A DNA stretch of 64,000 nt, from positions 42,259-106,258 of IMG/VR virus record IMGVR_UViG_2576861193_000004; one strand, 5' to 3'. The position numbers were made by a program, and so were the translations under genes. Shown here one piece after another: positions 21,747 through 64,000 of the stretch (within the stretch, counting starts at the first letter, position 1; every line of letters starts with the position of its first letter). This stretch comes from a virus. Taxonomy: Duplodnaviria > Heunggongvirae > Uroviricota > Caudoviricetes. A model generated the notes under the pieces. It saw only the letters and a program-made list of their open reading frames with translations, was not told where the DNA came from and made no database searches.

Positions 21747-21811
21747 CATTTCATATTTACCCCCTATCTACTAATTCTATGATGTGCTCACTTGTTAGAA
21801 AGGAGCACATC

Positions 21812-22378
21812 ATGAGTTGGTTAAAAGAATTATCATTTGTTGACACCACTGGCGCTAAGAAAAATCATTCTTTCTGGAAAGTCAGCGATCCTTCTGATTT
21901 TCTTGTTGGTGCTAATGCTGCTTTTGAATTGCTTAACTTTTATCAACGTTATCCTGAAATGAAACACAGTCCACTCCTGTACAGAATAACAAACGATATG
22001 AATAGGTCTGGTTTATTATCAAGTGAGTCAGCGAAAGGCTTTTTTAGCAAAATTACGCCACACATATCATTCGATTCAGCAAACGAAATTGATTATCTAC
22101 CCACGAAACCTCAAGAACAATTATCTGTACCACCTGAGAAAAAAGAAAGACGAATTTCCAGCATTGAAAATATATCGAAAGAGCTTCGCACAACAACGTT
22201 GAGGCTGCTGAACTTTCTTACGCTACTTAATTGGATAGATGATCAAACATTGATTCCATCAACCGATGCGTTGGATAACAGAGTCCTTAGGCTGAACAAA
22301 AAATCGCAATTTGGTTTTGTGTTCACCAAAAAAGGTGAAGATTTAATCAAAAGAAAATATAGATTATTGAATGATTAA
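21812..22378 (+). CDS. hypothetical protein
   Basis: Start set at MSWLKELSF (ATG 21812) preceded by GGAG; ORF track start 21779 would lie inside an inverted repeat. Confidence 0.3.
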   Translation: MSWLKELSFVDTTGAKKNHSFWKVSDPSDFLVGANAAFELLNFYQRYPEMKHSPLLYRITNDMNRSGLLSSESAKGFFSKITPHISFDSANEIDYLPTKPQEQLSVPPEKKERRISSIENISKELRTTTLRLLNFLTLLNWIDDQTLIPSTDALDNRVLRLNKKSQFGFVFTKKGEDLIKRKYRLLND

Positions 22379-22523
22379 TAGTCTACATGCAGGTGTATGA
22401 GAGCACCTGCATGTGACACTCATCACATTTTTTGAAGCACACACCTCCGGCTGAAAAAATTTCTTGATTGGCTGAACGATATTTGTAGGCTTTTCAATTG
22501 ATAACTAAGGTCGGATACTGTAG

Positions 22524-23012
22524 ATGAGTATTTCTATAAACAAAATAATTAACTCTTTACGACATAAAATATCACATGGAAAAGATGTTCTTTTTAAAGA
22601 AAAATATTATCTATTCAACTTAGAGCCGTACAAATGTACAAAATTTTATATCACTCGGAACCGTAAATATTCAGTTTCAATCACAAAAGACATGAAGAAA
22701 ATCTCTTCAGAAGAGTACTTCATATCACATATTTATATCTACCCATTTAAATTAGAACCATTAAATATAATTCTTCCTACAATAAAAGGGGTTGAACTTG
22801 AAGGTTATACTTTAAGCTCTAACTTTAATGATATGGGTGTACAAAAACCAGGGACAAGGTCATACTACGCCTACAAAGTAAAATGCAATAACTACAACGC
22901 ACTTAACATGCTAATCAGCAAACTTGAAACGGAGATAGTCGAAGGAAATCTAAATGATGATCATGAAAAATTAGAACAAATAGAAAAACTTAGAAAGTGT
23001 GATGTTAAATAA
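22524..23012 (+). CDS. hypothetical protein (AT-rich, Lys/Tyr/Asn-rich)
   Basis: 162 aa; first gene of translationally coupled trio; lower GC than flanks. Confidence 0.3.
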   Translation: MSISINKIINSLRHKISHGKDVLFKEKYYLFNLEPYKCTKFYITRNRKYSVSITKDMKKISSEEYFISHIYIYPFKLEPLNIILPTIKGVELEGYTLSSNFNDMGVQKPGTRSYYAYKVKCNNYNALNMLISKLETEIVEGNLNDDHEKLEQIEKLRKCDVK

Positions 23013-23627
23013 TTGGATTATCATGATATGAAAATGAAACTTTCGTTACTCCTTGCTTGTATATACCTCCCGGCGTTTCCCGCCAACGCATTATCAGATT
23101 TCGTCTCTGACATGCAAAAAACGTACAGCATGTTTACCTCCGAAGACGTAGTAGAATACAAATCACGAGGTCTGAATCAGCCAGTTTGGTTCAGATTCTC
23201 AGACAACGCAGAAGAAACAATACTTAATGGAGGAAAAGAAAGATTACGGTTGCAAATTAACGGGACCGCTGTACCAGAAAACGTTAATGTAAGCTCTGAC
23301 GAAGCCATGAAGCCATCTGGAATTGTTTTAGAAGTTCAAGACGGCACACTTTACTGTGATGAAATGGCTACAACAGGTTGCCAAGTAAACATTAGGGTTG
23401 GCAATGAAGAGCCTATCGTTACTTACGCCAAGGCTGAAGGGAATACAAGTGGAAAGGTATTGTTTATCGATGAAAATATCTCAAAACGTATCGTTCGTGA
23501 CATACAGAAAACAGCTAACTCTAAATCCGTCGATAAAAAAATCTATGTTGAGGTTCCCTTCTTTGTCGTTGGTAACAAAGAATTTAAATTTGGGTTGCTG
23601 AAAACACCTCTAAGAGTATCAGAATGA
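23013..23627 (+). CDS. hypothetical secreted protein (Sec signal peptide)
   Basis: N-terminus MKMKLSLLLACIYLPAFPANA with AxA cleavage-like site; start abuts previous stop. Confidence 0.35.
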   Translation: MDYHDMKMKLSLLLACIYLPAFPANALSDFVSDMQKTYSMFTSEDVVEYKSRGLNQPVWFRFSDNAEETILNGGKERLRLQINGTAVPENVNVSSDEAMKPSGIVLEVQDGTLYCDEMATTGCQVNIRVGNEEPIVTYAKAEGNTSGKVLFIDENISKRIVRDIQKTANSKSVDKKIYVEVPFFVVGNKEFKFGLLKTPLRVSE

Positions 23628-24148
23628 GAACATTGGACATCACCTACGGCATACCGGCTGAAGTCTGGCCGCGAGACTACGAACATGCTGAGAACATACT
23701 TATGTTCTGGCGGAAGAACAACATTCCTGTAAGAGTCACGCTTGAAGACGGTCAGGTGTTTTGCATGTACGTTCAGGGGACAATGCCTTCACGCAATAAG
23801 CTAGATTTATGCCCGATTCCATATGATAAAGAAAATCGTATAAGACTCCCACTTGAGCGCATTAGCACAATTGAATCAGGTGTAATCGATGGCATTGCTC
23901 GCGAGTTCAAAGGTAGGCTAACAATACATCCAGACTATGTTGACAATCAGCCATCACGCCGTGACTTTTTTGCGATATGTCGCAAGGCTTATCAAAACGA
24001 CCAATCTATAAGGGTCTACATGACAGACGGTCGTGAAATAGAAGGGGTGTCAAGAGGCGTTGATGCTTGCCAGGTCACTCTTAAGTTAGAAGACGGCAGA
24101 AAAATACTTGTTTTCTTCGATTGGGTTGAACGAATCCTTCCATTTTAA
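23624..24148 (+). CDS. hypothetical protein
   Basis: 174 aa; 4-nt overlap with upstream gene; followed by hairpin terminator. Confidence 0.3.
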   Translation: MRTLDITYGIPAEVWPRDYEHAENILMFWRKNNIPVRVTLEDGQVFCMYVQGTMPSRNKLDLCPIPYDKENRIRLPLERISTIESGVIDGIAREFKGRLTIHPDYVDNQPSRRDFFAICRKAYQNDQSIRVYMTDGREIEGVSRGVDACQVTLKLEDGRKILVFFDWVERILPF

Positions 24149-24160
24149 ATCTATAAGGGT

Positions 24161-24190
24161 AATAACCGGCTAAGTCCGGTTATTATTTTA
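24161..24190 (+). terminator. rho-independent terminator after accessory operon
   Basis: aataaccgg-ctaagt-ccggttatt perfect 9-bp stem followed by atttta. Confidence 0.5.
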
Positions 24191-24341
24191 CATGCCATTC
24201 ATTTAAAACTCTTTCAATGCCACCCCGTATAAATATATAAGGTTAAAGGCCCGAATTGATTATTTATTTAGGGAACACCTTCGACGATCTCGCTTTTATT
24301 TCTAGGACTTTCATCCCTGCAGAAAATTTAAAAAAAAACAC

Positions 24342-24370
24342 TTGCAATCTTTTTTCACGTATTGATAATT
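24342..24370 (+). promoter_or_regulatory. sigma70-like promoter for gene 24444-25094
   Basis: TTGCAA (24342-24347), 17-nt spacer, ATAATT (24365-24370); about 70 nt 5' UTR then AAGGA-ATG. Confidence 0.4.
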
Positions 24371-24443
24371 GAACTCGTCGAAAGCGAGCTGGCTAACGAC
24401 AGTAAAAATAAATTCATTTTAATTTTTCGTAAGGATGTCCATC

Positions 24444-25094
24444 ATGGCTAACATTATCATTTCTAAAAAGTCCATCATTGAAGCTGCTGCCATTGTATCC
24501 GACGAGCTGCGCGAAAAAGCAGATCTGGCAACTCAAACATATAACGAACATTATAAAAATGGTACGCACACAAAAGCAGACAAAGCAAACATGCAAGCTG
24601 CGACCACTAAACTTGCTTACTTCATCAACAACGTTGTGAACGCAGTAGAAGACGAAAAATTATGCTCTGTTTTCTACTATGCGATTAAAGCAAGCAAACA
24701 AGCGCCAGAAGTATTTTTCCGTGATGCAATGACTAATAGTTATTCTCTGGAAAAACTGGTTTATCTGGTTAAATCAATTAAATCTGGTAAATGCGTTTAC
24801 TCCATCGCTGATATGTCTGGATCTCGTGTATTCGCTTTAATCGATATGATTAACGACGAGATCGACACGTTCACCAATGGCGCTGTTTTCGATTTAATGA
24901 ATGAAGCTAAAAAAGCGTGCGAAATTAAATTGGACGCTGGCTATACTCAAGCCAACCAGTTGATCAATCTTTGCGAACGTCTTGGACTTGTTGAGAAAGT
25001 CAAAGGAATGGGAAGCGCAAAAGCTGGTACGCAGCAATATCGCTTTATTAAAAATGATTTCTATAACTATCTGGCTGATGCTTTCAAAGCGTAA
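24444..25094 (+). CDS. hypothetical protein (stand-alone, own promoter and terminator)
   Basis: Start set at MANIIISKK with RBS AAGGA; 217 aa; no family recognised. Confidence 0.35.
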   Translation: MANIIISKKSIIEAAAIVSDELREKADLATQTYNEHYKNGTHTKADKANMQAATTKLAYFINNVVNAVEDEKLCSVFYYAIKASKQAPEVFFRDAMTNSYSLEKLVYLVKSIKSGKCVYSIADMSGSRVFALIDMINDEIDTFTNGAVFDLMNEAKKACEIKLDAGYTQANQLINLCERLGLVEKVKGMGSAKAGTQQYRFIKNDFYNYLADAFKA

Positions 25095-31597: not shown

Positions 31598-33631
31598 TTA
31601 CTTAACCTGGTGGCCTGGTTTAGCACCAGCATCCGGGCTTAACAGGAAGATATCTTTCCCGCCGGGGCCAGCAGCCATCACCATGCCTTCGGAGATACCG
31701 AAGCGCATTTTACGCGGAGCCAGGTTAGCCACCATAATGGTGTGACGACCAATCAGTGCCTGTGGGTCTGGATAAGCAGAACGGATGCCTGAGAAGACAT
31801 TACGCTTTTCACCACCGAGATCCAGTGTCAGACGCAGCAGTTTGTCAGAACCTTCGACAAACTCCGCGTTTTCAATCAGCGCCACACGCAGGTCAACTTT
31901 GGCGAAGTCGTCAAAGGTGATGGTTTCCTGAATCGGGTCGTCAGCCAGTGGGCCAGTTACCGGTGCAGCTGTGGCTTTCACTTCTTCTTTGGATGCTTCC
32001 ACCAGTGCTTCCACCTGTTTCATATCGATACGGTTATACAGTGCCTTGAACGGATTCACTTTATGGCCCAGCAGCGGTTGCTGGATACCATCCCAGGTCA
32101 GTTCTGTATTCAGGAATGCTTCTGCACGTTCAGTCAGTTTCGGCAGTACCGGTTTCAGGTACGTCATCAGCACGCGGAACAGGTTAATGCCCATAGAGCA
32201 AATCGCCTGCAGGTCGGCATCGCGGCCTTCCTGCTTCGCCACCACCCACGGAGCCTGTTCATCAACATAGCGGTTAGCCAGGTCAGCCAGTGACATGATT
32301 TCACGGATAGCTTTGCCAAATTCGCGGCTTTCCCACGCTTCACCAATCACTTCAGCGGCATCAGTGAAGGTTTTGTACAGTTGCGGGTCAGCCAGTTCGC
32401 TTGCCAGCACGCCGTCAAAACGTTTGTTGATAAAACCTGCATTACGGGAGGCCAGGTTAACCACTTTGTTCACGATATCGGCATTCACGCGCTGAACAAA
32501 ATCTTCCAGGTTGAGATCGATATCATCAATGCGCGAAGAGAGTTTCGCAGTGTAGTAGTAACGCAGGCTGTCGGCGTCAAAATGATTCAGCCAGGTGCTG
32601 GCTTTAATAAAGGTGCCGCGAGACTTGGACATCTTCGCGCCGTTCACCGTCACATAGCCGTGAACAAACAGGTTGGTCGGCTTGCGGAAGTTGCTGCCTT
32701 CCAGCATGGCAGGCCAGAACAGGCTGTGGAAGTAAACGATATCTTTACCGATGAAGTGGTACAGCTCGGCGGTGGAGTCTTTCTTCCAGTATTCGTCGAA
32801 GCTGGTAGTGTCGCCGCGTTTGTCGCACAGATTCTTGAAGGAACCCATGTAGCCAATCGGCGCGTCCAGCCAGACGTAGAAATATTTGCCCGGTGCGTTC
32901 GGAATTTCAAAACCGAAGTACGGCGCATCGCGGGAGATATCCCACTGTTGCAGGCCAGATTCAAACCACTCCTGCATTTTGTTTGCCACCTGCTCCTGCA
33001 ACGCACCGCTGCGGGTCCATGCCTGCAACATTTCGCTGAAAGAGGGCAGATCAAAGAAGAAGTGTTCAGAATCACGCATTACCGGCGTAGCGCCAGAAAC
33101 CACCGATTTCGGCTCGATCAATTCAGTCGGGCTATATGTTGCGCCGCAGACTTCACAGTTATCGCCGTATTGATCTGGCGCTTTACATTTAGGACAGGTG
33201 CCTTTTACAAAACGGTCCGGCAGGAACATGCCTTTTTCCGGGTCGTACAACTGAGAGATAGTGCGGTTTTTAATAAAACCGTTCTCTTTCAGGCGAGTAT
33301 AGATAAGCTCAGACAACTGACGGTTCTCTTCGCTGTGCGTCGAGTGATAGTTGTCATAGCTGATGTTAAAGCCTGCGAAATCAGTCTGGTGTTCCTGACT
33401 CATTTCGCCAATCATCTGCTCCGGTGTGATACCAAGCTGCTGTGCTTTCAGCATGATCGGCGTACCGTGGGCATCGTCGGCACAGATGAAATTAACCTCG
33501 TGGCCGCGCATTCGCTGGTAACGAACCCAGACATCAGCCTGGATGTGCTCCAGCATATGGCCGAGGTGGATTGAGCCGTTAGCGTACGGCAGCGCGCACG
33601 TCACCAGAATTTTCTTCGCGACTTGGGTCAT
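31598..33631 (-). CDS. metG: methionine--tRNA ligase
   Basis: Translation from [26 protein letters not shown] (HIGH motif) through KMSKS to C-terminal tRNA-binding domain ending [10 protein letters not shown]; 677 aa from ATG 33631; ORF track N-terminal extension rejected. Confidence 0.95.
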
Positions 33632-33788
33632 AGTAGGCATTACTTCTTTGTAGTGAAAAGGGGCTTGATAGTAACAAAATGGCCTTATGTCTGCCATGTG
33701 ATAACAGCATTTCTCATAAATGATTAAATGTCGTAGCTGGAGTACACTACAAGGCGACAATTGCGCAAATTAAAATAAAGGAGACGGG

Positions 33789-34889
33789 ATGAGCGAGTCC
33801 AAATCGCCGGATGCCCTGAGAGCAATGGTAGCCGGTACGCTGGCTAATTTTCAGCACCCAACCCTGAAACACAACCTGACTACGCTTAAAGCGTTACACC
33901 ATGTTGCGTTGATGGATGACACACTGCATGTCGAACTAATCATGCCTTTCGTGTGGAATAAGCCTTTTGAAGACCTGAAAGAGCAATGTAGTGGTGATCT
34001 GCTCCGTATCACTGGCGCAAAGGCTATTGACTGGAAGCTGTCGTACAACATTGCCACGCTTAAGCGCGTCAAAAACCAACCAGGCATTAATGGCGTTAAG
34101 AACATTATCGCCGTCAGCTCAGGCAAGGGCGGCGTGGGTAAATCCTCCACGGCGGTAAACCTGGCACTGGCGTTGGCTGCTGAAGGTGCGAAAGTTGGTA
34201 TTTTGGATGCCGATATCTATGGTCCATCAATTCCAACCATGCTGGGCGCGGAAAACCAACGTCCAACCTCACCTGACGGTACTCACATGGCACCTATCAT
34301 GTCTCATGGCCTGGCAACCAACTCTATTGGTTATCTGGTCACCGACGACAATGCAATGGTGTGGCGTGGACCGATGGCCAGCAAGGCGCTGATGCAGATG
34401 TTGCAGGAAACTCTATGGCCTGATCTGGACTATCTCGTTCTCGATATGCCGCCGGGCACTGGTGATATTCAGTTGACGCTGGCGCAGAACATTCCTGTAA
34501 CTGGTGCGGTTGTGGTAACTACGCCGCAAGACATCGCGCTGATCGATGCGAAGAAAGGCATTGTGATGTTCGAAAAAGTCGAAGTGCCGGTACTGGGTAT
34601 CGTCGAAAACATGAGTGTGCATATTTGCAGTAACTGCGGTCATCACGAGCCAATTTTTGGCACCGGTGGCGCACAGAAACTGGCCGAGAAATACAACACG
34701 CAGTTGTTAGGCCAAATGCCACTTCATATCTCTCTTCGTGAAGATCTGGATAACGGAACACCAACCGTTATTAGTCGTCCAGATAGCGAATTTACGGCTA
34801 TTTATCGTGACCTCGCAGATCGCGTTGCTGCCCAAATGTATTGGCAAGGTGAAGTAATACCTGGCGAAATCGCATTCCGCGCAGTGTGA
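33789..34889 (+). CDS. apbC: Fe-S cluster carrier ATPase ApbC/Mrp
   Basis: 366 aa; Walker A SGKGGVGKS, CxxC-type motif CSNCGH; divergent from metG with a 157-bp intergenic region as in E. coli. Confidence 0.9.
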   Translation: MSESKSPDALRAMVAGTLANFQHPTLKHNLTTLKALHHVALMDDTLHVELIMPFVWNKPFEDLKEQCSGDLLRITGAKAIDWKLSYNIATLKRVKNQPGINGVKNIIAVSSGKGGVGKSSTAVNLALALAAEGAKVGILDADIYGPSIPTMLGAENQRPTSPDGTHMAPIMSHGLATNSIGYLVTDDNAMVWRGPMASKALMQMLQETLWPDLDYLVLDMPPGTGDIQLTLAQNIPVTGAVVVTTPQDIALIDAKKGIVMFEKVEVPVLGIVENMSVHICSNCGHHEPIFGTGGAQKLAEKYNTQLLGQMPLHISLREDLDNGTPTVISRPDSEFTAIYRDLADRVAAQMYWQGEVIPGEIAFRAV

Positions 34890-34890
34890 T

Positions 34891-34920
34891 AAAAAGGCGG
34901 TGCATTGCACCGCCTAATCA
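34891..34920. terminator. bidirectional hairpin terminator between apbC and the umuD'-like gene
   Basis: aaaaa-ggcggtgca-t-tgcaccgcc; A-run on one side gives a U-run for the minus-strand transcript. Confidence 0.5.
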
Positions 34921-34926
34921 GTTCTC

Positions 34927-35316
34927 CTACATCACGGGACAATCATCAAACTCGCCACTTCTTGCGTCGTTGATAATGTGAGTGATCACACCAAACACGG
35001 CATTGCTGCCCGTGCATCCATCGTCATCCTTTGGCAATGCTTCCTTCTTACCGGTTCTTAAATCCTCCAGATGCTGACGTGGGTACTTCCGGTATCTTTT
35101 TACGCGATATTCCCCATCCAGAGCGCATACAAGCAGAGAACCATCAACCGGGGTAAGTGAGGAATCGACCACCAGCAATGCACCCTGTAATATTCCCTCA
35201 CGATGATGACTATCAGCTGCCCTCATGAAGTAGGTCGCTGAAGGATGTCTAATTATCTGCTGATCAAGAGAAATACGGCTCTCAGCATAATCCGCCGCAG
35301 GAGAAGGGAAGCCCAT
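34927..35316 (-). CDS. umuD: UmuD'-like peptidase S24 protein (P1 HumD-like; encoded without the UmuD N-terminal arm)
   Basis: 129 aa starting MGFPSPAADY, which matches UmuD just after its autocleavage region; LexA box 20 bp upstream. Confidence 0.75.
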   Translation of the reverse strand: MGFPSPAADYAESRISLDQQIIRHPSATYFMRAADSHHREGILQGALLVVDSSLTPVDGSLLVCALDGEYRVKRYRKYPRQHLEDLRTGKKEALPKDDDGCTGSNAVFGVITHIINDARSGEFDDCPVM

Positions 35317-35414: not shown

Positions 35415-35678
35415 TTATTTTTTGGCTATATCTTCTTTCTGATATACCGGATCGTTTCCTTTTGGCAGCAGGAGGCTTAACTGCCGGTAGTGCCGTAGCC
35501 GTTCCATGAAATAGGTGCGCAGGTTCTCAGGTTGCTCACGGGCTACCTGTTCCGCTATGACGGGTATGTTCAATCGCTCTTTGTAGGCAACCCCCCTGGC
35601 AGCCAGGTCAACGTTAACTTTATTCCTTTCTTCCTGGCTTTTAGCTGCTATGTTCCATTCGTTCATATTAAATCCCAT
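35415..35678 (-). CDS. holE: DNA polymerase III theta subunit homolog (P1 Hot-like)
   Basis: [42 protein letters not shown] closely parallels E. coli theta [42 protein letters not shown]; true start may be the internal MNEWNIAAK. Confidence 0.65.
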
Positions 35679-36134
35679 CCAGAATAATTGAATAACGGCT
35701 ATTATTTAGTCGCCGCAATATCTTCAAAGTTTTTTTTCTCACCCCATTGCTTTTTGCGCACAGCTTATCTGGCTTGCGGTGCGCGAAATGTAAATTCGCC
35801 TTCAGAGTTATCCACAAAGTTATGCACTTGCAACGGGGCCATTTTCCTCATACCGTGTTTGCACACACAGGAAATGGATATTTTATTAATTGAATTTTAT
35901 TAAATAATAATGATAAGGAGAAAATTTGAGATGTAATCATGACATTAATAGATAGGGCCTGCATTACAGGCCCCAACTACATCAAGGAATTCACAGTTCC
36001 CTGATTTTTATACCGAAAACATGTGCCGTAAGTTCACGTTAACGACTTTCTTTCACCGAATCCAACTATATAGAGGTTGGGTTTCTACGTCAACGTGAGA
36101 GCACGCAGCTTTACATTAGACGAGGATTACCCTG

Positions 36135-36272
36135 ATGATTGTATTTTTTCAGTTTCTAAGTGCATTTTTAAATGCGCCTGTTCTTAGCCAAGTGCTGGCG
36201 ATTGTCTTCATCGTGGTTCTGATATGGTTTTTCAAGTCAGTGATAAACAGAGGCGTGCGCTGGCTTATTTAA
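36135..36272 (+). CDS. small hydrophobic peptide (45 aa), possible membrane toxin-like protein
   Basis: MIVFFQFLSAFLNAPVLSQVLAIVFIVVLIWFFKSVINRGVRWLI; RBS gagga 8 nt upstream; below ORF-track size cutoff. Confidence 0.3.
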   Translation: MIVFFQFLSAFLNAPVLSQVLAIVFIVVLIWFFKSVINRGVRWLI

Positions 36273-36804
36273 TGTCGCGATGAGATATTAATTCCCTTGC
36301 TGTTTAACCATTTTTTGTGTGTGCTGGTGAGCGTGTGAAGGCTCAATTTGTTGCCCACCAGTATTTACTATTTCTAAGCTCCACAGTGTCACTTCCGCAC
36401 AAACAACTTAGCGCGGAATCAGTATTCGGCCCAAGATGTAAAAAGCCAACCTGCGTTATGGTTCGCATTTCCAAATAGTGTTCTGAACGCCCTTGCCGGG
36501 CGCGAGATGTAGATTAGCGTTCACGCTATGCTGATATACGGCTTTAGACTTTCCATATTGCTGACAGGCTTTATCTGCGGTTTTTTGCAGGCTATCCAGC
36601 CCATACCAGCCATCAGACTGGATGCTTACCTTTTCACCGTCATTGTATTGCACCATCGCGCACCCAAACATGGCTATCATCGCACCGACAATACCACTTT
36701 TCCAAAAAGCTCTAATTAGGTCATTCGTTACCTAATGTCCGAACTGCTAAAGCATCCAAGTTGCTGTAGAATCACCGCCAATTACATAAGCCTGAAATAA
36801 GTGG

Positions 36805-38367
36805 ATGAAAATGACAAGTATTCAACAACGTGCAGAGCTTCATCGTCAAATCTGGCAAATTGCTAACGATGTCAGGGGTTCGGTCGATGGATGGGATTTT
36901 AAGCAATACGTTCTGGGCGCACTTTTCTACCGTTTTATCAGCGAAAATTTTTCCAGTTATATTGAAGCCGGTGATGACAGTATCTGTTATGCGAAACTGG
37001 ATGACAGCGTAATTACTGATGACATTAAAGACGATGCCATCAAAACTAAAGGCTACTTCATCTACCCCAGTCAGCTTTTCTGCAACGTAGCTGCGAAAGC
37101 AAATACTAATGACAGACTGAATGCAGATTTAAACAGCATCTTCGTTGCTATCGAAAGTTCTGCTTACGGTTATCCTTCAGAAGCAGACATCAAAGGTTTG
37201 TTTGCTGATTTCGATACCACCAGTAACCGCCTGGGTAACACCGTTAAAGATAAAAATGCCCGCCTGGCTGCGGTTCTGAAAGGGGTTGAAGGGTTAAAAC
37301 TTGGTGACTTCAACGAACATCAGATTGACCTGTTCGGTGATGCCTATGAGTTCCTGATTTCTAACTATGCGGCAAATGCCGGTAAGTCAGGCGGTGAGTT
37401 CTTTACACCGCAGCACGTCTCCAGGCTGATTGCACAACTGGCAATGCATGGCCAGACCCACGTTAACAAAATCTACGACCCGGCAGCGGGTTCCGGCTCA
37501 CTGTTGTTGCAGGCGAAAAAACAGTTTGATAACCACATCATCGAAGAAGGCTTTTTCGGTCAGGAAATCAACCATACGACCTATAACCTGGCGCGTATGA
37601 ACATGTTTTTGCACAATATCAACTACGACAAGTTTGATATCAAGCTGGGTAATACACTGACTGAGCCGCACTTCAGAGATGAAAAACCGTTTGACGCCAT
37701 CGTATCTAACCCACCGTATTCGGTGAAATGGATTGGCAGCGATGACCCGACGCTGATTAACGATGAGCGTTTTGCCCCGGCTGGCGTTCTGGCCCCCAAA
37801 TCCAAAGCTGACTTTGCGTTTGTATTACATGCACTGAACTATCTTTCTGCCAAAGGTCGTGCTGCGATTGTCTGCTTCCCGGGTATTTTTTACCGTGGCG
37901 GCGCGGAGCAGAAAATCCGTCAGTATCTGGTCGATAATAACTATGTCGAAACCGTGATTTCACTGGCACCGAACCTGTTCTTTGGCACCACCATTGCAGT
38001 AAACATTCTGGTGCTGTCTAAACATAAAACGGATACCAACGTTCAGTTTATTGACGCCAGCGAACTGTTCAAAAAAGAGACTAACAACAATATCCTGACC
38101 GATGCCCATATCGAACAGATTATGCAGGTATTTGCCAGCAAGGAAGATGTTGCTCATCTGGCGAAATCTGTCACGTTTGAGACCGTTGTCGCGAATGACT
38201 ATAACCTGTCGGTAAGCAGCTATGTGGAAGCGAAAGATACTCGCGAAATTATCGATATCGCTGAGTTGAATGCAGAACTGAAAACCACGGTCAGCAAAAT
38301 CGACCAGTTGCGTAAAGATATTGATGCGATTGTGGCTGAAATTGAAGGCTGCGAGGTGCAGAAATGA
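36805..38367 (+). CDS. hsdM: Type I restriction-modification methyltransferase subunit
   Basis: 520 aa; AdoMet motif [10 protein letters not shown], catalytic NPPY (VSNPPYS); start of next gene overlaps stop by 4 nt. Confidence 0.95.
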
Positions 38368-39599
38368 GCGAGTTGAGTTATCTGGAAAAATTGCTGGATG
38401 GGGTTGAGGTTGAGTGGTTGCCATTGGGGAAACTAGGTGAATTAGTTCGTGGAAATGGATTGCCTAAGTCTGATTTTACCGAATCTGGGGTTCCTGCCAT
38501 ACACTATGGTCAGATATATACTTTTTACGGATTATCTACTGAAACAACAAAGTCATTTGTTTCCCATGAAACGGCGAAGAAGCTTAAAAAGGTTAACTCT
38601 GGTGATGTTGTTATTACTAACACAAGCGAAAATTTTACTGATGTTGGTAAGGCGCTTGTTTATCTAGGTAAAGAGCAAGCTGTTACTGGTGGCCATGCAA
38701 CTATTTTCAAGCCAAATAGCACTATTATTGGGAAATACTTTGCCTATTTCACGCAAACGGATTCTTTTGCAAATGAGAAAAGGAAATACTCCAAGGGAAC
38801 TAAAGTAATTGATGTGTCTGCATCGGATATGGCGAAAATTATTATCCCTATCCCCTGTCCGGAAAATCCCAAAAAATCCCTTGCTATCCAGTCTGAAATC
38901 GTTCGGATTCTGGACAAATTTACTGCACTTACCGCTGAGCTTACCGCTGAGCTTACCATGCGTAAAAAACAGTACAACTACTATCGCGACCAATTGCTGA
39001 GTTTTAAAGAAGGTGAGGTTGAGTGGAAAACTTTGGGAGAAGTGGCTCAATACTCGAAAACAAGAATTAGTTTCGAACTACTTGATGAAAGGAATTATGT
39101 TGGCGTAGATAATCTGCTGCAAAACAGAGCAGGAAAATCATTATCTAATCATGTACCCACATCAGGTAAATTAACGGAGTTTATACCTAACGATATACTG
39201 ATTGGGAATATCCGCCCATATTTGAAAAAAATTTGGCAAGCAGATTGTATCGGTGGAACAAATGGCGATGTATTGGTTATTCGTTGCATAGATAGCTCAA
39301 TAAATACCAGATATCTATATCAGATTTTGGCAGATGACAAATTCTTTGAATACAACATGCAGCATGCTAAAGGAGCAAAAATGCCGCGTGGCAGTAAAGA
39401 GGATATAATGAAATACCCAATCCCTGTACCGCCACTCACCTTGCAAGCTCGCATTGTCGAAATACTCAACAAATTCGATACCCTGACAAACTCCATCACT
39501 GAAGGTCTTCCGCGTGAAATCGAATTACGCCAGAAACAATACGAATACTACCGTGATTTACTGTTCAGTTTCCCAAAACCTGAAACTGTCAGTAATTAA
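38364..39599 (+). CDS. hsdS: Type I restriction-modification specificity subunit
   Basis: 411 aa; conserved N-terminal, central ([42 protein letters not shown]) and C-terminal ([35 protein letters not shown]) regions separating two variable target-recognition domains. Confidence 0.9.
38931..38954 (+). repeat. tandem 12-bp repeat (ACCGCTGAGCTT x2) encoding TAEL-TAEL in the HsdS central spacer
   Basis: accgctgagctt accgctgagctt read directly in sequence. Confidence 0.8.
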
Positions 39600-39720
39600 T
39601 TGACCATTGCTACCGACCGGGCCACCTTAACACCCGGTCTGTATATAGACTATTTTTTACGCGCCGGAAGTCACTCTTAACGCCCTTCCGGCCCTTGCCA
39701 GGCGGCACAAAGGATGCGCT

Positions 39721-42700
39721 ATGACTCATCAAACACACACCATTGCTGAATCCAATAACTTTATCGTCCTTGATAAGTACATCAAAGCTGAGCAAACAAG
39801 CGACAGCTACCAGAGCGAATCGGACCTGGAACGTGAACTGATTCAGGACCTGCGGAATCAGGGTTATGAATTTATTTCCGTAAAATCACAGTCGGCAATG
39901 CTGTCCAATGTTCGGGAACAGCTTCAGAGCCTCAATGGTGTGATGTTTAATGACAGCGAGTGGCGGCGCTTCACGGAGCAGTATCTGGACAATCCCAGCG
40001 ATGGTATTCTGGATAAGACCCGTAAAATCCATATCGACTATATCTGCGACTTTATTTTTGACGACGGGCGTCTTGAGAACATCTATCTGATCGATAAAAA
40101 GAATCTCATGCGCAACAAAGTGCAGATTATCCAGCAGTTTGAACAGGCAGGTTCTCATGCTAACCGTTATGACGTCACGATCCTGGTTAATGGCTTGCCT
40201 CTGGTGCAAATCGAACTGAAAAAGCGCGGCGTGGCGATTCGTGAGGCTTTCAACCAGATACATCGTTACAGCAAAGAGAGTTTTAACAGCGAAAATTCCC
40301 TGTTTAAGTATCTGCAACTGTTTGTCATTTCTAACGGCACCGATACCCGTTATTTTGCCAACACCACAAAGCGCGATAAAAACAGTTTTGACTTCACCAT
40401 GAACTGGGCGAAATCAGACAACACGCTGATTAAAGACCTCAAAGACTTTACCGCTACCTTTTTCCAGAAACATACCCTGCTTAATGTTCTGGTGAACTAC
40501 AGCGTGTTTGACAGTAGTCAGACGCTACTGGTGATGCGACCGTACCAGATTGCAGCTACCGAACGGATCTTATGGAAAATCAACAGCTCCTATAAAGCGA
40601 AAAACTGGTCTAACCCCGAAAGCGGTGGCTTTATCTGGCACACCACTGGTTCCGGTAAAACACTGACCAGCTTTAAAGCCGCGCGTCTGGCAACTGAACT
40701 GGACTTTATTGATAAAGTCTTCTTCGTGGTCGACAGGAAAGACCTCGATTACCAGACCATGAAGGAATATCAGCGTTTTTCGCCAGACAGCGTCAACGGC
40801 TCGGAAAATACCGCAGGTCTTAAACGAAATCTGGATAAGGACGATAACAAAATTATCGTCACCACTATTCAGAAACTTAATAACCTGATGAAAGCAGAAA
40901 GCGACCTGCCTGTATACAATCAGCAAGTGGTGTTTATATTTGATGAATGCCACCGCAGCCAGTTTGGAGAAGCGCAGAAAAACCTGAAGAAGAAATTCAA
41001 ACGCTATTATCAGTTTGGTTTTACCGGCACCCCTATTTTCCCGGAAAATGCCTTAGGCTCAGAAACGACCGCCAGCGTATTTGGTCGTGAATTGCATTCG
41101 TATGTAATTACCGATGCGATTCGTGACGAAAAAGTGCTCAAATTCAAGGTGGACTACAACGATGTGCGGCCACAGTTTAAGTCTTTAGAGACAGAAACTG
41201 ACGAGAAAAAACTGAGTGCGGCTGAAAATCAGCAGGCGTTTCTTCATCCCATGCGTATTCAGGAAATCACGCAATATATCCTGAACAACTTCCGCCAGAA
41301 GACTCACCGTACTTACCCCGGCTCCAAAGGTTTTAATGCCATGCTGGCAGTAAGCAGCGTGGATGCCGCGAAAGCCTATTACGCGACGTTTAAACGGTTA
41401 CAAGAGGAAGCCGCTAATAAATCTGCTACCTATAAACCACTGCGTGTTGCGACAATCTTCTCCTTTGCCGCCAATGAAGAACAAAATGCCATTGGTGAAA
41501 TTTCCGATGAAACTTTTGATACCAGCGCAATGGACAGCAGTGCTAAAGAGTTTCTTGACGCTGCAATTCGTGAGTATAACAGCTATTTTAAAACTAACTT
41601 CAGCACCGACAGTAACGGTTTTCAGAACTACTATCGTGATTTAGCCCAACGGGTTAAAAATCAGGATATCGATCTGTTAATTGTCGTTGGGATGTTTTTA
41701 ACCGGCTTCGACGCTCCAACATTGAACACGCTATTCGTCGATAAAAACTTGCGTTTTCACGGCCTGATGCAGGCATTCTCCCGTACCAACCGCATTTATG
41801 ACGCTACTAAAACCTTCGGTAACATCGTCACTTTTCGGGATCTGGAACGCTCAACCATTGATGCCATAACGCTGTTTGGTGATAAAAATACTAAAAATGT
41901 GGTGTTAGAAAAGAGTTATGCAGAGTATATGGAAGGCTTTACTGATGCTGCTACAGGTGAAGCTAAACGCGGCTTTATGGCAGTAGTTTCAGAACTGGAA
42001 CAACGGTTCCCTGACCCTGCCAGTATTGAAAGTGAAAAAGAGAAGAAAGACTTCGTTAAACTGTTTGGCGAATACCTGCGTGCCGAGAACATCCTGCAAA
42101 ACTATGATGAATTTGCCACGCTGAAAGCCCTGCAACAAATCGATCTTAGCGATCCTGTTGCGGTAGAAAAATTCAAAGAAGAACATTATGTGGATGATGA
42201 AAAGTTCGCTGAATTGCAAACGATTCGTCTCCCTGCTGAACGCAAGATTCAGGATTATCGTTCTGCCTATAACGATATTCGTGACTGGCAGCGCCGCGAG
42301 AAAGAAGCTGATAAAAAAGAAAAATCAACCACTGACTGGGATGACGTGGTTTTTGAGGTCGATTTGCTGAAGTCTCAGGAAATAAACCTGGATTATATCC
42401 TTGGACTGATTTTCGAACACAACAGACAAAATAAAGGCAAGGGCGAAATGATCGAAGAGGTCAAACGCTTAATTCGTTCAAGCCTGGGGAACCGGGCGAA
42501 AGAGGGCCTGGTGGTCGATTTTATTCAGCAAACGAACCTGGATGATTTACCAGACAAAGCCAGCATCATTGACGCGTTCTTTACCTTTGCTCAACACGAA
42601 CAGCTACGTGAAGCAGAAGCGTTGATTAAAGAAGAAAATCTCAATGAAGAGGCGGCGAAACGCTATATTCGCACGTCTTTAAAACGCGAATACGCCACCG

Positions 42701-48292: not shown

Positions 48293-48886
48293 TTACGCTG
48301 CCTTTTTACGTGGTCTCTTCTTCCTGACAACATTGGCAGGGTCATAACCAACCAGCTTTTTCATCACCGCCAGCGGTATTTTACTGATGGTGTGCCCAGC
48401 TTCCTGACAGTAGCCACGGAAGATAAGCAACATGCTGCCACCAGGGTTGATGTCTACTTCCACCAGCCCAAGTTCAACATCCGGCTCAACAAATGCCACG
48501 CGGCCACCTGACAAGATGACTGTTTCGTTTGCGCACTCAGCCGCACGCTCATACCACCGCGTATCGAGGGATTGTGGTATCAGCATGATCGTCGTCACTC
48601 CACGCGTCTGCTCGCGAATGGCCGCTTCTATCCAGGGGGTGATTTTGGAGTAAGGCGGGTTAAGGAACGCCACAGTGCCAGGTTCTCCCCAACTGCACTT
48701 GAGCGCATCACGCTCAACACCGATAAAGTTCGGCAGGAGAGCATTATCTTTGTTGCAGGCGACGTCCACATCGAACTTTACGCCTATGTAACGTTGGATG
48801 GCGACAAACAACCACTGCGGTGTGCGCCAAAGGTCGCGAAGAGAGGCATCACGCTCTCGCTTTTTGATTTTTTCGGCTGCGATCAT
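48293..48886 (-). CDS. phage-type DNA N6-adenine methyltransferase (Dam-like, orphan)
   Basis: 197 aa; WRTPQWLF N-terminus and catalytic NPPYS motif; no adjacent restriction gene. Confidence 0.7.
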   Translation of the reverse strand: MIAAEKIKKRERDASLRDLWRTPQWLFVAIQRYIGVKFDVDVACNKDNALLPNFIGVERDALKCSWGEPGTVAFLNPPYSKITPWIEAAIREQTRGVTTIMLIPQSLDTRWYERAAECANETVILSGGRVAFVEPDVELGLVEVDINPGGSMLLIFRGYCQEAGHTISKIPLAVMKKLVGYDPANVVRKKRPRKKAA

Positions 48887-60730: not shown

Positions 60731-61375
60731 TTAAAACGTCTCTGAGGGCTTCTGACGCGCTCTGCTGATGTCTATTACCCCAGCTTTTGGACGAGGGTCT
60801 ACAAGATTCAACTCTTCAGCACTGTGATACTCCGTGTCGAACTCCCGATCGACATGGCGAATGTAAATGGCTGTCAGAAGGCTGTTATCATTCAGAAAGT
60901 GTCCGTAAGATTTGCGAATTACTTCGCCAACCTTCTCAATCTTCTCTCCGCCCATGCAGAGATGGTTAAATCGGCTGTGTTTCCGCAGCATTTCATCCAC
61001 CGGGCCTGAGTAGACCTTATCAACTCTCCCGAACCGGATGATATTTCCGGTATCAGCTTCAACCAGACAAACGAGTTTGCCAGGTTCGACACGATCTCGC
61101 CAAGTGACACCAGAGCGCAGTGTGTTGAAGTAGGGAGCATCCAATCCGATGATCGGTTTACGAAATGCTAGTAGTGGCACGTAACGTATGCAGCTGTTTA
61201 GGTGGAAATGCGCACCGGCGTCGTGGAGTTTAAGCCGGGTTTCGTTAATCGGGCATTTCGAAGCAATGCCGCAAAGGTCGCAGAGCAACTTCTGTTTGTT
61301 CAGACTAGTGTTTGATTCAATGGTGTAGGAGCCATCTTCAAGACGGCGAACCCAGCGCGTGCGTTTAAGATCCAT
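60731..61375 (-). CDS. hypothetical protein
   Basis: 214 aa; Cys pair CDLCGIASKC. Confidence 0.3.
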   Translation of the reverse strand: MDLKRTRWVRRLEDGSYTIESNTSLNKQKLLCDLCGIASKCPINETRLKLHDAGAHFHLNSCIRYVPLLAFRKPIIGLDAPYFNTLRSGVTWRDRVEPGKLVCLVEADTGNIIRFGRVDKVYSGPVDEMLRKHSRFNHLCMGGEKIEKVGEVIRKSYGHFLNDNSLLTAIYIRHVDREFDTEYHSAEELNLVDPRPKAGVIDISRARQKPSETF

Positions 61376-61460
61376 AATTCTTGTTCAAATAATTTTGTCC
61401 GGGGCAACGATAACGGATAAGGCGCACCGGAGTTTGCAAATGCCTGTTTACTTATTCACT

Positions 61461-61677
61461 TTATTCACAGGCCCGATCCAATATTTAGATCCCCAGAGAG
61501 ATCCTACAGAAGATCAAAAGAGATCCCAGATCGTCTCCAGCGCTTGCGGTTACTGGCTTGAGAAGGGGTTACTATCCACTATAGGGAGCAAAATAACCAC
61601 TGTAGAGAGCATAATAACCGCTATGAAGAGCAAAACAACCTCTCTGGAGAGTAGTCGGTATCCACTGTAGTGAGTAG
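61461..61677 (+). promoter_or_regulatory. origin-like region copy 1: DnaA box, GATC cluster, iterons
   Basis: TTATTCACA (61461-61469); six GATC within about 70 bp (61475-61542); then 4-5 iterons with core CCACTRTAGRGAG (61571-61677). Confidence 0.6.
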
Positions 61678-61844
61678 GAGACAATGTTTTAACTGGATAA
61701 CTCCGAGCCTGTTTTTCTGCGGCAGATGGCTGATATTCTTGGAAATATTGTAAATTTTGCGCTGCGGCGTGTTTATTTCGATCACACATTATCCCCAGAA
61801 GGGGAGTGATGCCTGATTTTGTAATTATCTGATTTTTATACACA

Positions 61845-62075
61845 GGCCCGATCCAGTAATTCAGATCCCTGTTAGAACCAAAGAGAACCACAAAGACCCA
61901 AAGAGATCCCCGGCCCCTGCAAACCGTTGTGCCACATGGCTTTAGAGGTTATCGATATCCACTATAGTGAGAATAACAACCACTATAGAGAGTAAATCAA
62001 CCACTATGGAGAGTAGAAAAACCGCTGTAGGCGGTAGGATAACCACTGTGATGGGTGCTACTATCCACTGTAATC
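61845..62075 (+). promoter_or_regulatory. origin-like region copy 2: DnaA box, GATC sites, iterons upstream of repA
   Basis: TTATACACA (61845-61853) followed by cacaggcccgatccagtaattcagatccc (near-copy of 61466-61492), then 5 iterons (61955-62075). Confidence 0.6.
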
Positions 62076-62117
62076 AGTAAAGGCACCCAAGCCGTCGAAT
62101 AAAAAGAGACATTTGGA

Positions 62118-63173
62118 ATGAGCGTAAACGACAATAAAAACATTGCGATAAGCGAAGCATTTTCCGAAACAGACAAAAAGACCGGCGAAGTTGTTACGTT
62201 AGTTCCTAACACCAACAACACAGTTCAGCCTGTTGCTCTGATGCGTCTTGGTCTCTTCGTTCCGACGCTGAAATCGACATCCAGGGGTAGAAAGGGGCAA
62301 ATGGTCTCTATGGACGCCTCCGCTGAACTCAAACAGCTGTCTCTGGCCAAAGCCGAAGGGTACGAGGATATAAGGATTGCTGGTCTTCGTCTTGATATGG
62401 ATAACGATTTCAAAACATGGGTGGGCATCATCCACGCGTTCGCCAAGCACAAGGTTGTTGGTGACACCGTCACGTTGCCGTTCGTCGAGTTCGTCAGACT
62501 TTGTGGCATACCAACAGCCAGATCGTCCGCGAAGTTACGTAAGCGCCTGGACAGCTCTCTAAGTCGTATCGCCACAAACACCATCTCATTCCGCAGCAAA
62601 GGCTCTGAAGAGTATTACGTTACGCACCTTGTGCAGACGGCAAAGTACAGTACCAAGAATGACACGGTCGAACTGAAGGCCGATCCTAAGATTTTCGAAC
62701 TTTACCAGTTCGACAAAAAGGTGCTTTTGCAACTTCGGGCCATCAACGAACTCTCCAGAAAGGAATCCGCGCAGGCGCTCTACACCTTCATTGAAAGTTT
62801 GCCACCAGACCCGGCGCCAATCTCATTGGCTCGCTTACGCGCCAGACTTAACTTAACCAGCCGTACCATTACCCAGAATGCGACAGTCAGGAAGGCGATG
62901 GAGCAACTGCGAGAGATCGGCTATCTCGATTACACTGAAGTGAAACGCGGCAGCTCGGTCTACTTCGTCATCCACTATAGACGGCCGAAGTTACGTTCGG
63001 CACTGCCGCCATCTATGGCCACGCCTGAAGATCCAGAAGATATCTTGTCAGGTGATGATCCGGAGGACATTATCGATGTTGCTCCTGAAGAAAAAGACGG
63101 GGAAATGGTCATGTTGAGCAAGGAAGAACTGGCGATTCTCGAAGAGCTGCGCAAGGCAAAGGCTCGCAAATAG
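62118..63173 (+). CDS. repA: iteron-binding plasmid replication initiator RepA (P1/RepFIB type)
   Basis: 351 aa; [62 protein letters not shown]; flanked by iteron arrays. Confidence 0.75.
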
Positions 63174-63180
63174 CCCAACC

Positions 63181-63790
63181 ACTGTAGAGAGTAAAAAGGC
63201 TCACTATCCACTGTAGTGAGCCTTTTTGTTTATCGGAAATGCAATATCCACTGTAGTGAGTAAAAGAAACCGAAGAATAACCACTGTAGGCAGTGCGCAC
63301 AAATCGCGAAGTAAATGTTAGTGGTTGCAAACATAGATAAAACAAGGGCTGAGAGGTTAGCGGTCACTGGGTATCTCTGTTAAGTCTACTCTCTACAGCG
63401 GTTATCGTCGCTCTCCTCATTGTTGACTATCCACTGTGAAGAGCAGAATTGGCTGACTTGACCTCTATCCACTGTAGTGAGTGGATATCCGTTTAAAACA
63501 GCGAAGATTTACTCTCCATAGTGGATATCCGCTGGAGGGGGCATTCCATCACTCTCTATAGTGGTTGTTTGTAGTCAGTGAACGCCTGTTTACTCACTAC
63601 AGTGTATAGCGACCCCGATAATCACCAATTTACTCACTACAGTGGATAGTTGATATCGTGGCAGAGGGTTTGCTCACTACAGTGGTTGGGGTGCATACCT
63701 GAAGGGTGTTCTACTCGCTACAGTGGTTATGAGCCGGATTCACACGCGGTGAGCTGGCTACTCACCGCAGTGGATAGTGTTATCAGTGGA
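63181..63790. repeat. downstream iteron array (incA-like), at least 9 copies in both orientations
   Basis: Repeated CCACTGTAGTGAG / CTCACTACAGTGG cores about every 40-60 bp. Confidence 0.6.
63193..63227 (+). terminator. rho-independent terminator after repA (hairpin built from an iteron)
   Basis: aaaaa-ggctcacta-tccactg-tagtgagcc-ttttt. Confidence 0.55.
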
Positions 63791-64000
63791 TTTTCTTCAG
63801 CAGACCCCAGAGTGTCCCGGCCTTCGTTGCGAGCTTACCTGTTTCCGGATCGTACATGCGCCATTCACGTCGCTGGTGGACAATATACCCATCTTCACGT
63901 TCCAGTCGTTCCAGTACGCCGGACTGCTTGAACCCTTTGGCACGCCAGGTGATGCTGCCAACTTACTGATTTAGTGTATGATGGTGTTTTTGAGGTGCTC
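63783..64000 (-). CDS. hypothetical protein, C-terminal part only (gene starts beyond window end)
   Basis: Minus-strand frame ending ...WRAKGFKQSGVLERLEREDGYIVHQRREWRMYDPETGKLATKAGTLWGLLKKIH with stop at 63783-63785. Confidence 0.3.

Follow-up and report, generated by a model that had tools for sequence, protein, structure and literature searches.

In the annotated record of phage P1, the R replicon begins with tandem DnaA boxes, followed by five Dam sites (AGATCC-type heptamers), a GC-rich spacer, five 19-bp iterons in 21-bp phase (incC), repA, and incA. Classical RepFIB replicons (P307, F, and pO157, with pVM01 being the one compared here) have a DnaA box, five clustered GATC sites, and five 21-bp iterons (BCDD'D'') upstream of rep and a control array (E-K) downstream, rep being flanked by iteron blocks on both sides. 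Experiments on RepFIB indicate that the upstream iterons go with the origin and that the downstream block alone displaces the plasmid, consistent with handcuffing (PMC11983097). The SSU5 supercommunity of phage-plasmids is typed as IncFIB (PMC7969092), and one related phage-plasmid, Cyrano, is maintained at ~5.5 copies per cell (PMC9928086). Here, we analyze the locus at 61.4-63.8 kb of a 64,000-nucleotide stretch of an IMG/VR virus record (IMGVR_UViG_2576861193_000004, positions 42,259 to 106,258), with the whole stretch referred to below as the window. This locus is the plasmid-replication unit of an Escherichia coli phage-plasmid of the SSU5 / pHCM2 / pMT1 family, and upstream of its initiator gene, repA, it carries two homologous origin-like modules, a distal one (M1) and a proximal one (M2). 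We lean towards the interpretation that an ancestral P1-like module, combining origin and operator, was duplicated and its roles partly split, with M1 acting as the Dam-dependent origin and M2 as promoter/operator and control locus, its Dam sites decaying.

The 2.6-kb replicon region of the window is 100% identical to the E. coli plasmid pA320_p0 (CP142569.1), which is non-mobilizable and IncFIB according to MOB-suite typing. The pA320_p0 record also carries capsid, portal, and terminase genes, as well as the same Dam-family methyltransferase gene that is found in the window, at a collinear position. Salmonella phage SSU5 matches 100% of the 2.6-kb query at 89.3% identity, and Escherichia phage Cyrano (= pLF82) matches the region at 81.5% identity. 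More than 150 further plasmids from enterobacteria align over at least 80% of the query, with identities from roughly 80% upward, the genera hosting matching plasmids being Escherichia, Salmonella, Yersinia, Enterobacter, and Citrobacter. The same replicon is present on the Yersinia pestis plasmid pMT, likewise IncFIB by MOB-suite, and PlasmidFinder contains a dedicated type, 'IncFIB(pLF82-PhagePlasmid)', with IncFIB(pHCM2) as a further type for this replicon. Given the identity to pA320_p0 and SSU5 and the phage structural genes on the matching record, the window derives from an SSU5-like phage-plasmid, in agreement with the lifestyle proposed by an earlier reading of the letters without database searches (hereafter the sequence-only reading). 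We are fairly confident that the locus is a theta-type iteron-controlled replicon of the RepFIB / P1-RepA lineage by which the prophage of an SSU5-like siphovirus persists in E. coli as a plasmid of low copy number, and its replicon type is IncFIB(pLF82-PhagePlasmid) / pHCM2 / pMT1. The proposal of a P1/RepFIB-type replicon on a phage-plasmid is correct yet already known, as the sequence is identical to that of database plasmids; annotation of the window as an SSU5-like E. coli phage-plasmid with a standard IncFIB-type maintenance replicon is useful, if unsurprising. A 2026 preprint on phage-plasmid RepA copy-number mutants was considered for comparison and found inapplicable, as it concerns a different replicon regulated by CopA/CopT RNA.

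SSU5, pMT1, pLF82/Cyrano, and pHCM2 (the last by literature typing) carry the same replicon as the window. Across the SSU5/pMT1/Cyrano group, identity is 81.5-100% for the DNA over the full 2.6 kb and 90-100% for RepA, both upstream modules and a mixed-orientation downstream array are present, and the flanks are the same, with an open reading frame (ORF) of 214 amino acids on the left and an ORF resembling the P1 gene cra on the right. The window differs from this group in the sequence of one decayed heptamer, and from its SSU5-type relatives in having an IS1 element inserted immediately to the right of the downstream array.

Each of the two modules upstream of repA consists of a DnaA box, phased heptamers (10-13 bp), a GC-rich spacer, and 21-bp-phased iterons. 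Iterons were located with a position weight matrix (PWM) that was built from the repeats and iteratively refined, yielding the consensus ATAACCACTGTAGTGAGTA. The features of the upstream region are as follows:
61452-61676: M1, the distal module, with 2 DnaA boxes, 6 GATC sites, and 5 iterons
61452-61469, + strand: tandem DnaA boxes of M1, from a consensus scan, at the same position as the tandem boxes of P1 oriR
61475-61532: heptamer tract of M1, with six GATC (Dam) sites spaced by 13, 12, 12, 10, and 7 bp
61533-61571: GC-rich spacer of M1, from the last GATC to the first iteron, resembling the spacer of P1 oriR
61572-61676, + strand: iteron array of M1, five 19-bp predicted RepA-binding repeats, from the PWM scan and a repeat finder
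61677-61835: inter-module spacer, 159 bp
61836-62079: M2, the proximal module, with 1 DnaA box, 3 GATC sites plus 3 decayed heptamers, and 6 iterons
61836-61844, + strand: DnaA box of M2, TTATACACA, a perfect match in the consensus scan
61850-61908: heptamer tract of M2, with GATC at 61850, 61864, and 61905 and three 10-bp-phased slots that read GAACC, GAACC, and GACCC
61955-62079, + strand: iteron array of M2, six iterons of 17.6-27.3 bits in the PWM scan
62056-62064, + strand: candidate repA promoter, an extended -10 element TGCTACTAT (TGcTACTAT) at the junction of the last two M2 iterons, with the -10 itself at 62059-62064

At the left end of M1, the DnaA box at 61461 (TTATTCACA) matches TTATNCACA perfectly, and the box directly ahead of it at 61452 (TTATTCACT) has one mismatch. 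The heptamer tract that follows is the densest GATC cluster of the window, holding six sites in 58 bp compared to 3-4 in the runner-up; when the 254 GATC sites of the window were placed at random, six in such a span were reached in 1 of 2000 trials. The sequence-only reading had noted these six sites within about 70 bp, and their clustering is in fact somewhat tighter. By analogy with P1, this tract would serve as the region of methylation-dependent melting and SeqA sequestration. The M1 iterons start at 61572, 61593, 61614, 61635, and 61658 (spacing 21, 21, 21, and 23 bp; 19.4-28.7 bits), and those of M2 at 61955, 61976, 61997, 62018, 62039, and 62061 (spacing 21, 21, 21, 21, and 22 bp), although a natural variant (L095) has five M2 iterons. 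The M2 iterons may function as the repA operator and as additional RepA-titrating or handcuffing sites. Between the modules, the spacer holds a conserved DnaA-box-like site (TTATCCCCA, 61789-61797) that is also present in SSU5, pMT1, and Cyrano (as ATATCCACA in Cyrano) and that recalls P1 oriR, which has another set of DnaA boxes at its right end. A derivation of this spacer from a duplicated copy of the repA leader or 5' end was considered and rejected, as its similarity to them did not rise above that of shuffled controls.

Iterons scored 17.6-29.9 bits, and elsewhere in the 64 kb no site exceeded 13.9 bits apart from a look-alike within repA. In total, 26 strong copies of the 19-bp iteron, a weak copy at 63525, and the repA look-alike were confined to 2.4 kb around repA. 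The look-alike (TCATCCACTATAGACGGCC, 62968-62986, 15.9 bits) lies in the 3' part of repA and could either have arisen by chance from the coding sequence or represent an additional site for RepA. Small ORFs that overlap the repeats, such as those at 61359-61670 (+) and 61550-61891 (-), were set aside as by-products of the repeats.

Compared element by element with P1, M1 has the same order and almost the same spacings as oriR, and its spacer, ctggcttgagaag, is related to that of P1, ctggcttagaag. As aligned with the annotated record, M1 is the position-by-position counterpart of P1 oriR. Together with the correspondence between the downstream array and incA, this collinearity bears out the suggestion, made from the sequence alone, that the locus has the architecture of the P1 R replicon. 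The iterons themselves are different, with GATGTGTGCTGGAGGGAAA in P1 and the unrelated ATAACCACTGTAGTGAGTA in the window, which fits an incompatibility specificity other than that of P1. Both this unrelated iteron consensus and the IncFIB typing of the identical plasmid place the replicon outside the P1 group (IncY).

Alignment of the two modules (61460-61675 with 61835-62056) gave 73% identity over 212 columns, with a score of 74 compared to 19 for the best of 200 shuffles. A duplicated origin module had been part of the sequence-only reading, and this aspect was confirmed. However, the GATC-containing segment described there as near-identical in the two copies is so only over its first 27 nt (89% identity), and M2 has just three GATC sites. 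The iteron counts proposed at the same time also required adjustment. The 4-5 given for M1 agree with the five found, M2 has six rather than five, and by PWM the array downstream of repA has 15 where at least nine had been proposed.

To determine how widespread the double module is, we compared 118 loci encoding RepA relatives, drawn from species-representative genomes and IMG/VR, together with individual records; these comprise 97 distinct upstream regions. Two iteron arrays were present upstream of repA in 66 of the 97, the sources being Kluyvera, Buttiauxella, Yersinia, Franconibacter, Pantoea, Rahnella, Erwinia, Phytobacter, Cedecea, Xenorhabdus, and IMG/VR viral contigs. Two arrays were likewise seen in pCrono684-1, a Cronobacter plasmid examined separately. 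A single module was found in P1, PhiR41_1, pJN2-26, classical RepFIB, and one group of Pantoea plasmids. The clade with the double module encompasses SSU5-type phage-plasmids along with plasmids of Pantoea, Rahnella, Erwinia, Cronobacter, and Kluyvera. The presence of two arrays across many genera implies that the doubling is old and conserved within one RepFIB-related clade, and that it is neither peculiar to this genome or to phage-plasmids nor an artefact.

Within the SSU5 clade (22 distinct sequences), mean column conservation was 0.88-0.96 for the modules and 0.83 for the inter-module spacer, the least conserved upstream segment. The DnaA boxes of M1 scored 0.88 and that of M2 0.96, while the M1 iteron array was the best conserved segment upstream of repA, with a mean of 0.945 and 71% invariant columns. 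All six GATC sites of M1 are kept in these sequences, with three isolated exceptions that appear to be alignment slips; in M2, the three GATC sites do not vary, and none of the three decayed slots reads GATC in any sequence. By this measure, both copies of the upstream module are conserved. Tandem repeats do slip easily, and the downstream array varies in length among near-identical plasmids, so we considered whether the doubling might lack any function, stemming either from a tandem duplication that was recent and neutral or from faulty assembly. Nonetheless, the two copies are merely 73% identical, the layout recurs in 66 of 97 regions from many genera and in the independent records of SSU5, pMT1, Cyrano, Pantoea, and Cronobacter, and both copies are more conserved than the spacer between them. 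On the grounds of divergence, conservation, and broad spread, we rejected this explanation as very improbable indeed.

The two modules also differ from one another in a consistent manner. GATC sites are more numerous in the distal than in the proximal head in 62 of the 66 two-module regions and equally numerous in the other 4, with no region showing the opposite; the counts are 5-7 for the distal head in 64 of the 66, and 0-5 for the proximal head. The proximal head is devoid of GATC in 6 of 66 regions (e.g., Franconibacter, Phytobacter, and [Erwinia] mediterraneensis), with the proximal iterons next to repA being kept. Similarly, in pCrono684-1 the proximal GATC sites have all been lost and the head sequence is unrecognisable, with the proximal iterons again retained. 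The distribution of the promoter motif is the reverse: 56 of the 66 regions have TGnTAnnnT at the last iteron junction of their proximal array, and none has it at that of the distal array. Single-module Pantoea relatives have this motif in their only array, and in the single-module replicons of P1 and Pantoea the GATC head and the promoter position share one array. The -10 element of P1 PrepA lies between the last two incC iterons, and the candidate -10 of the window occupies the same position; P1, however, has one upstream module, which holds the promoter, whereas the window has two, with the promoter-like motif only in the proximal one. The retention of GATC sites distally and the restriction of the -10 motif to the proximal copy suggest that the origin lies in the distal copy and the repA operator in the proximal one.

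An alternative is that M2, which adjoins repA as the origins of P1 and RepFIB do, is the working origin, and that M1 provides auxiliary iterons for titration or handcuffing or acts as a sink for SeqA or DnaA. Every single-module relative has its origin directly upstream of repA, M2 has a perfect DnaA box, three invariant GATC sites, and six iterons, and its spacer resembles that of the classical RepFIB origin. On the other hand, half of the Dam sites of M2 are gone in the window, and the proximal head lacks them altogether in 6 of 66 regions, whereas the distal head keeps 5-7 in 64 of 66. Nor would anything explain why an M1 devoted purely to titration should conserve its DnaA boxes and six phased GATC sites. 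Origin mutagenesis by Brendler, Abeles and Austin in 1991 reportedly found the GATC heptamers to be critical for P1 oriR, which also counts against an origin in M2. We regard this alternative as unlikely.

It could also be that both modules are functional origins, redundant or alternating, for instance with one fully under Dam/SeqA control and the other less sequestered. The fact that both are more conserved than the intervening spacer, and that each has a DnaA box, phased heptamers, and 21-bp-phased iterons, would be in keeping with this idea. Yet the six regions and the Cronobacter plasmid that lost their proximal GATC sites kept the two-array layout, implying that two origins are unnecessary for maintaining it, and the restriction of the promoter motif to M2 indicates that the copies have diverged in role. 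A pair of working origins therefore strikes us as quite doubtful.

A division of roles between M1 and M2 thus remains the interpretation that we favor, and several points weigh against it. The 66 two-module loci are related by descent, so the counts given above are of non-independent events, and pairwise identities between module heads were so noisy that neither the age of the duplication nor its having occurred only once could be read from them. A generic sigma-70 scan did not call the candidate promoter at 62056-62064; its best + strand site within the repeats was a weaker TTTAGA-16-TATAGT at 61941-61968, which is poorly conserved in SSU5, pMT1, and Cyrano. Throughout the SSU5 clade, M2 keeps a perfect DnaA box, three invariant GATC sites, and phased heptamers, and it could act as an origin there. 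In addition, we infer which module fires, the requirement for Dam, and the location of the promoter alike.

Based on P1 and RepFIB biology, the following mechanism can be envisaged for divided roles. RepA monomers would bind the 21-bp-phased iterons of M1 and host DnaA the tandem boxes at its left end, and together they would open the duplex in the phased, methylated heptamer tract of M1. The six GATC sites of M1 would need Dam methylation and, being hemimethylated after firing, would be subject to SeqA sequestration. Transcription of repA would start from the extended -10 promoter between the last two iterons of M2, and this placement of the promoter within the iterons would allow RepA to repress its own synthesis. 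M2 and the 15 downstream iterons would titrate RepA and handcuff the origin, resulting in a low copy number. The shedding of Dam sites from M2 might allow initiator synthesis to escape silencing by sequestration after each round of replication. We put forward more tentatively, although as a credible extension, the statement that this is an ancient duplication of a P1-type origin with divided roles, conserved across a large RepFIB-related clade, in which M2 serves as operator and as a handcuffing partner that is shedding its Dam sites.

The consistent asymmetry, with Dam sites distal and the promoter motif proximal, extends over a clade that includes Y. pestis pMT1 and Salmonella Typhi pHCM2 (by literature typing). 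If the roles are indeed divided, these replicons would offer a simple, testable case of the separation of the overlapping origin and operator of P1, and would show which iteron blocks are suited to plasmid-curing or incompatibility tools directed against these phage-plasmids. The literature on SSU5, pMT1, pHCM2, pLF82, and RepFIB yielded typing and copy-number data only, and no description of a double-module origin was found there, although the primary papers on RepFIB and pMT1 from 1989-1998 and the comparison by Gilcrease and Casjens, which lay outside the scope of this survey, may describe one. A conserved two-module origin with asymmetric decay of Dam sites, a promoter in the proximal copy only, and an array of variable length may therefore be under-described.

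The features from repA onward are as follows:
62118-63173, + strand: repA, encoding an iteron-binding replication initiator of 351 amino acids with an ATG start, from the ORF list and annotated as repA in identical plasmids
63192-63229, + strand: intrinsic terminator, a hairpin followed by a U-run, UUUUUGUUU (-23.6 kcal/mol, z = -4.2)
63175-63777: incA-like array of 15 iterons, of which 14 are strong and one is weak, with 7 on the + strand and 8 on the - strand, from the PWM scan and a repeat finder
63175, 63204, 63244, 63277, 63427, 63465, and 63525 (weak), + strand: downstream iterons
63387, 63510, 63550, 63591, 63631, 63671, 63712, and 63759, - strand: downstream iterons

The only long ORF in the 61.4-63.8 kb region is repA. 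Its product matched the Pfam domain Rep3_N (WH1) over residues 115-225 (E 2.4e-11; 44.6 bits compared to a cut-off of 22.4 bits), while the match to Rep3_C (WH2) at 20.7 bits was slightly below the cut-off of 21.1 bits. RepA was 61% identical over 330 amino acids to the classical RepFIB RepA of pVM01 (E 4e-144) and 49% identical over 267 amino acids to P1 RepA (E 1e-92), with tblastn also matching P1 and P7; identity to RepA of PhiR41_1 and pJN2-26, other phages of the SSU5 supercommunity, was 48.5%. The window RepA differs from that of P1 in having an acidic C-terminal extension of 35 amino acids and a longer N-terminus. A search of solved structures by sequence returned no relative of RepA, and no NCBIfam model matched it. 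The alignments to pVM01 and P1 agree with the P1/RepFIB-type initiator expected from the sequence-only reading, for which failure to align would have been contrary evidence, and from these similarities RepA is a Rep_3-family initiator homologous to both P1 and RepFIB RepA.

A terminator had been predicted to follow repA, and the hairpin and U-run at 63192-63229, after the repA stop codon, match this expectation. None of 200 shuffled sequences was equally stable, and the stem takes in the iteron at 63204. A pattern-based terminator scan missed this hairpin, probably due to pairing of an A-run with the U-run. A search of 60.5-64 kb with Rfam returned nothing credible, the single match (E 0.15) falling on the terminator and iteron, and the same scan gave no sign of an antisense-RNA control system. 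Overall, the DnaA boxes, GATC cluster, iterons, repA, terminator, and downstream array were all found where the sequence-only reading had placed them, with minor corrections.

The first downstream iteron begins 2 bp past the repA stop codon, and a period of 40-41 bp marks the inverted tail of the array. In P1, incA starts at the repA stop codon and comprises 3 direct followed by 6 inverted iterons, and the window array likewise passes from mostly direct to inverted; as P1 incA is also mixed, the mixed orientation of the window array is itself a P1-like trait. The arrays differ in number, with 9 iterons in incA compared to 15 in the window, and in what follows, parAB lying directly after incA in P1 and the cra-like ORF and then IS1 in the window. 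Array length is variable among relatives: SSU5 has 14 downstream iterons, pMT1 13, and Cyrano 12, and in E. coli plasmids sharing more than 99% identity with the window the number is 14, 15, 16, 17, or 19, examples of these natural variants being pGS04EC-1, pA320_p0, pP59A-2, CT01 unnamed1, and pE16EC1016-4. This variation consists of whole 41-bp units in the inverted tail (63510-63777) and resembles a variable-number tandem repeat. Changes in array length may tune copy number. Should this and the division of roles both hold, the locus would provide a natural example of iteron replicons retuning the control of initiation and of copy number.

Classical RepFIB replicons resemble the window in the spacer of the origin, ctgcaaaccttgtcactcatgg being similar to the M2 spacer, ctgcaaaccgttgtgccacatgg. 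They differ in having a single upstream module followed by a leader of ~170 bp, in their ATAAGCTGTGGCATGTTA-type iteron sequence, and in a CTG start codon (PMC11983097), as opposed to the ATG of the window, which follows the last iteron after a gap of 38 bp.

PhiR41_1 (Escherichia) and pJN2-26 (Klebsiella) have the same flanking genes as the window and an origin with two DnaA boxes, 5-6 GATC sites, a GC-rich spacer, and iterons. In contrast, their RepA proteins are only 48.5% identical to that of the window as noted above, their iterons are different, they have a single module, and their intergenic region is ~200-320 bp compared to 743 bp. The flanks at 60731-61375 (the 214-amino-acid ORF) and 63783-63953 (the cra-like ORF) thus enclose different replicons in PhiR41_1 and pJN2-26, and the replicon looks like an exchangeable cassette. 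The left-hand ORF is annotated as 'ASCH RNA-binding domain containing protein' in the Cyrano record. In the GenBank record of pJN2-26, 'attR' and 'attL' are annotated at 1246-1265 and 2516-2535, flanking repA, and the annotated repA coding sequence starts in the GC-rich spacer of the origin and runs through the iterons; both annotations look doubtful.

The window also encodes a Dam-like methyltransferase, which lies outside the replicon and is given here as genomic context:
48293-48886, - strand: phage Dam-family N6-adenine methyltransferase of 197 amino acids

The existence and coordinates of this gene had been recognized from the sequence alone and were confirmed by matches to Pfam PF05869 Dam (1.2e-36) and TIGR01712 phage_N6A_met (111.9 bits compared to a cut-off of 97.05 bits); its strand was corrected to minus. 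It had been suggested at the same time that the enzyme could keep the plasmid origin methylated independently of host Dam. The enzyme is a bona fide member of the phage Dam family, 96.8% identical to its SSU5 homologue, the six-GATC cluster of the origin is conserved, and P1 also encodes a Dam-type methylase, making the co-occurrence P1-like, all of which would be compatible with such a role. However, its specificity for GATC is only putative, and the closest homologues found outside the SSU5 group are only 31-41% identical (a Vibrio phage, an Stx-phage at 38%, and others at ~31%, annotated as Dam or N6-adenine methyltransferases). The genera hosting matching plasmids (Escherichia, Salmonella, Yersinia, Enterobacter, and Citrobacter) possess Dam and SeqA themselves, so an enzyme encoded by the element would be unneeded in the plasmid state. 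Moreover, enzymes of this kind are widespread among phages lacking a plasmid origin, both strictly lytic and integrating ones, which points to roles in lytic growth or evasion of restriction. Enrichment of GATC across the window was considered as support for a link to Dam and rejected: with 254 sites observed and 255.5 expected, GATC is neither enriched nor depleted. While possible, a dedicated origin-methylating role for the phage enzyme is unsupported, and we consider it improbable that the enzyme serves to free methylation of the origin from host Dam.

One stretch of the window, at 35454-40088, is free of GATC over 4.6 kb, compared to a window mean of one site per 252 bp, and has a GC content of 42-47%. 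The type I restriction-modification genes hsdM and hsdS lie within it, along with the sequence immediately upstream of them, and the stretch may represent cargo acquired recently.

To the right of the replicon, the left end of IS1 is found from ~63948 (ggtgatgctgccaacttactgat...), the element extending beyond the end of the window. This insertion appears to truncate the 5' end of the minus-strand ORF that runs from 63783, which is homologous to the 'Cre-associated protein' of SSU5 and to the Cra-like gene of P1; the ORF spans 171 bp in the window compared to 213 bp in SSU5. In the identical plasmid, IS1 is followed by a yehD-type fimbrial operon. Further to the left, at ~31600-35000 (collinear with 21588-24879 of CP142569.1), the annotations of the matching plasmid indicate homologues of chromosomal housekeeping genes, namely methionine--tRNA ligase (metG) and the iron-sulfur carrier ApbC, and near these lie a homologue of DNA polymerase III theta and an S24 peptidase.

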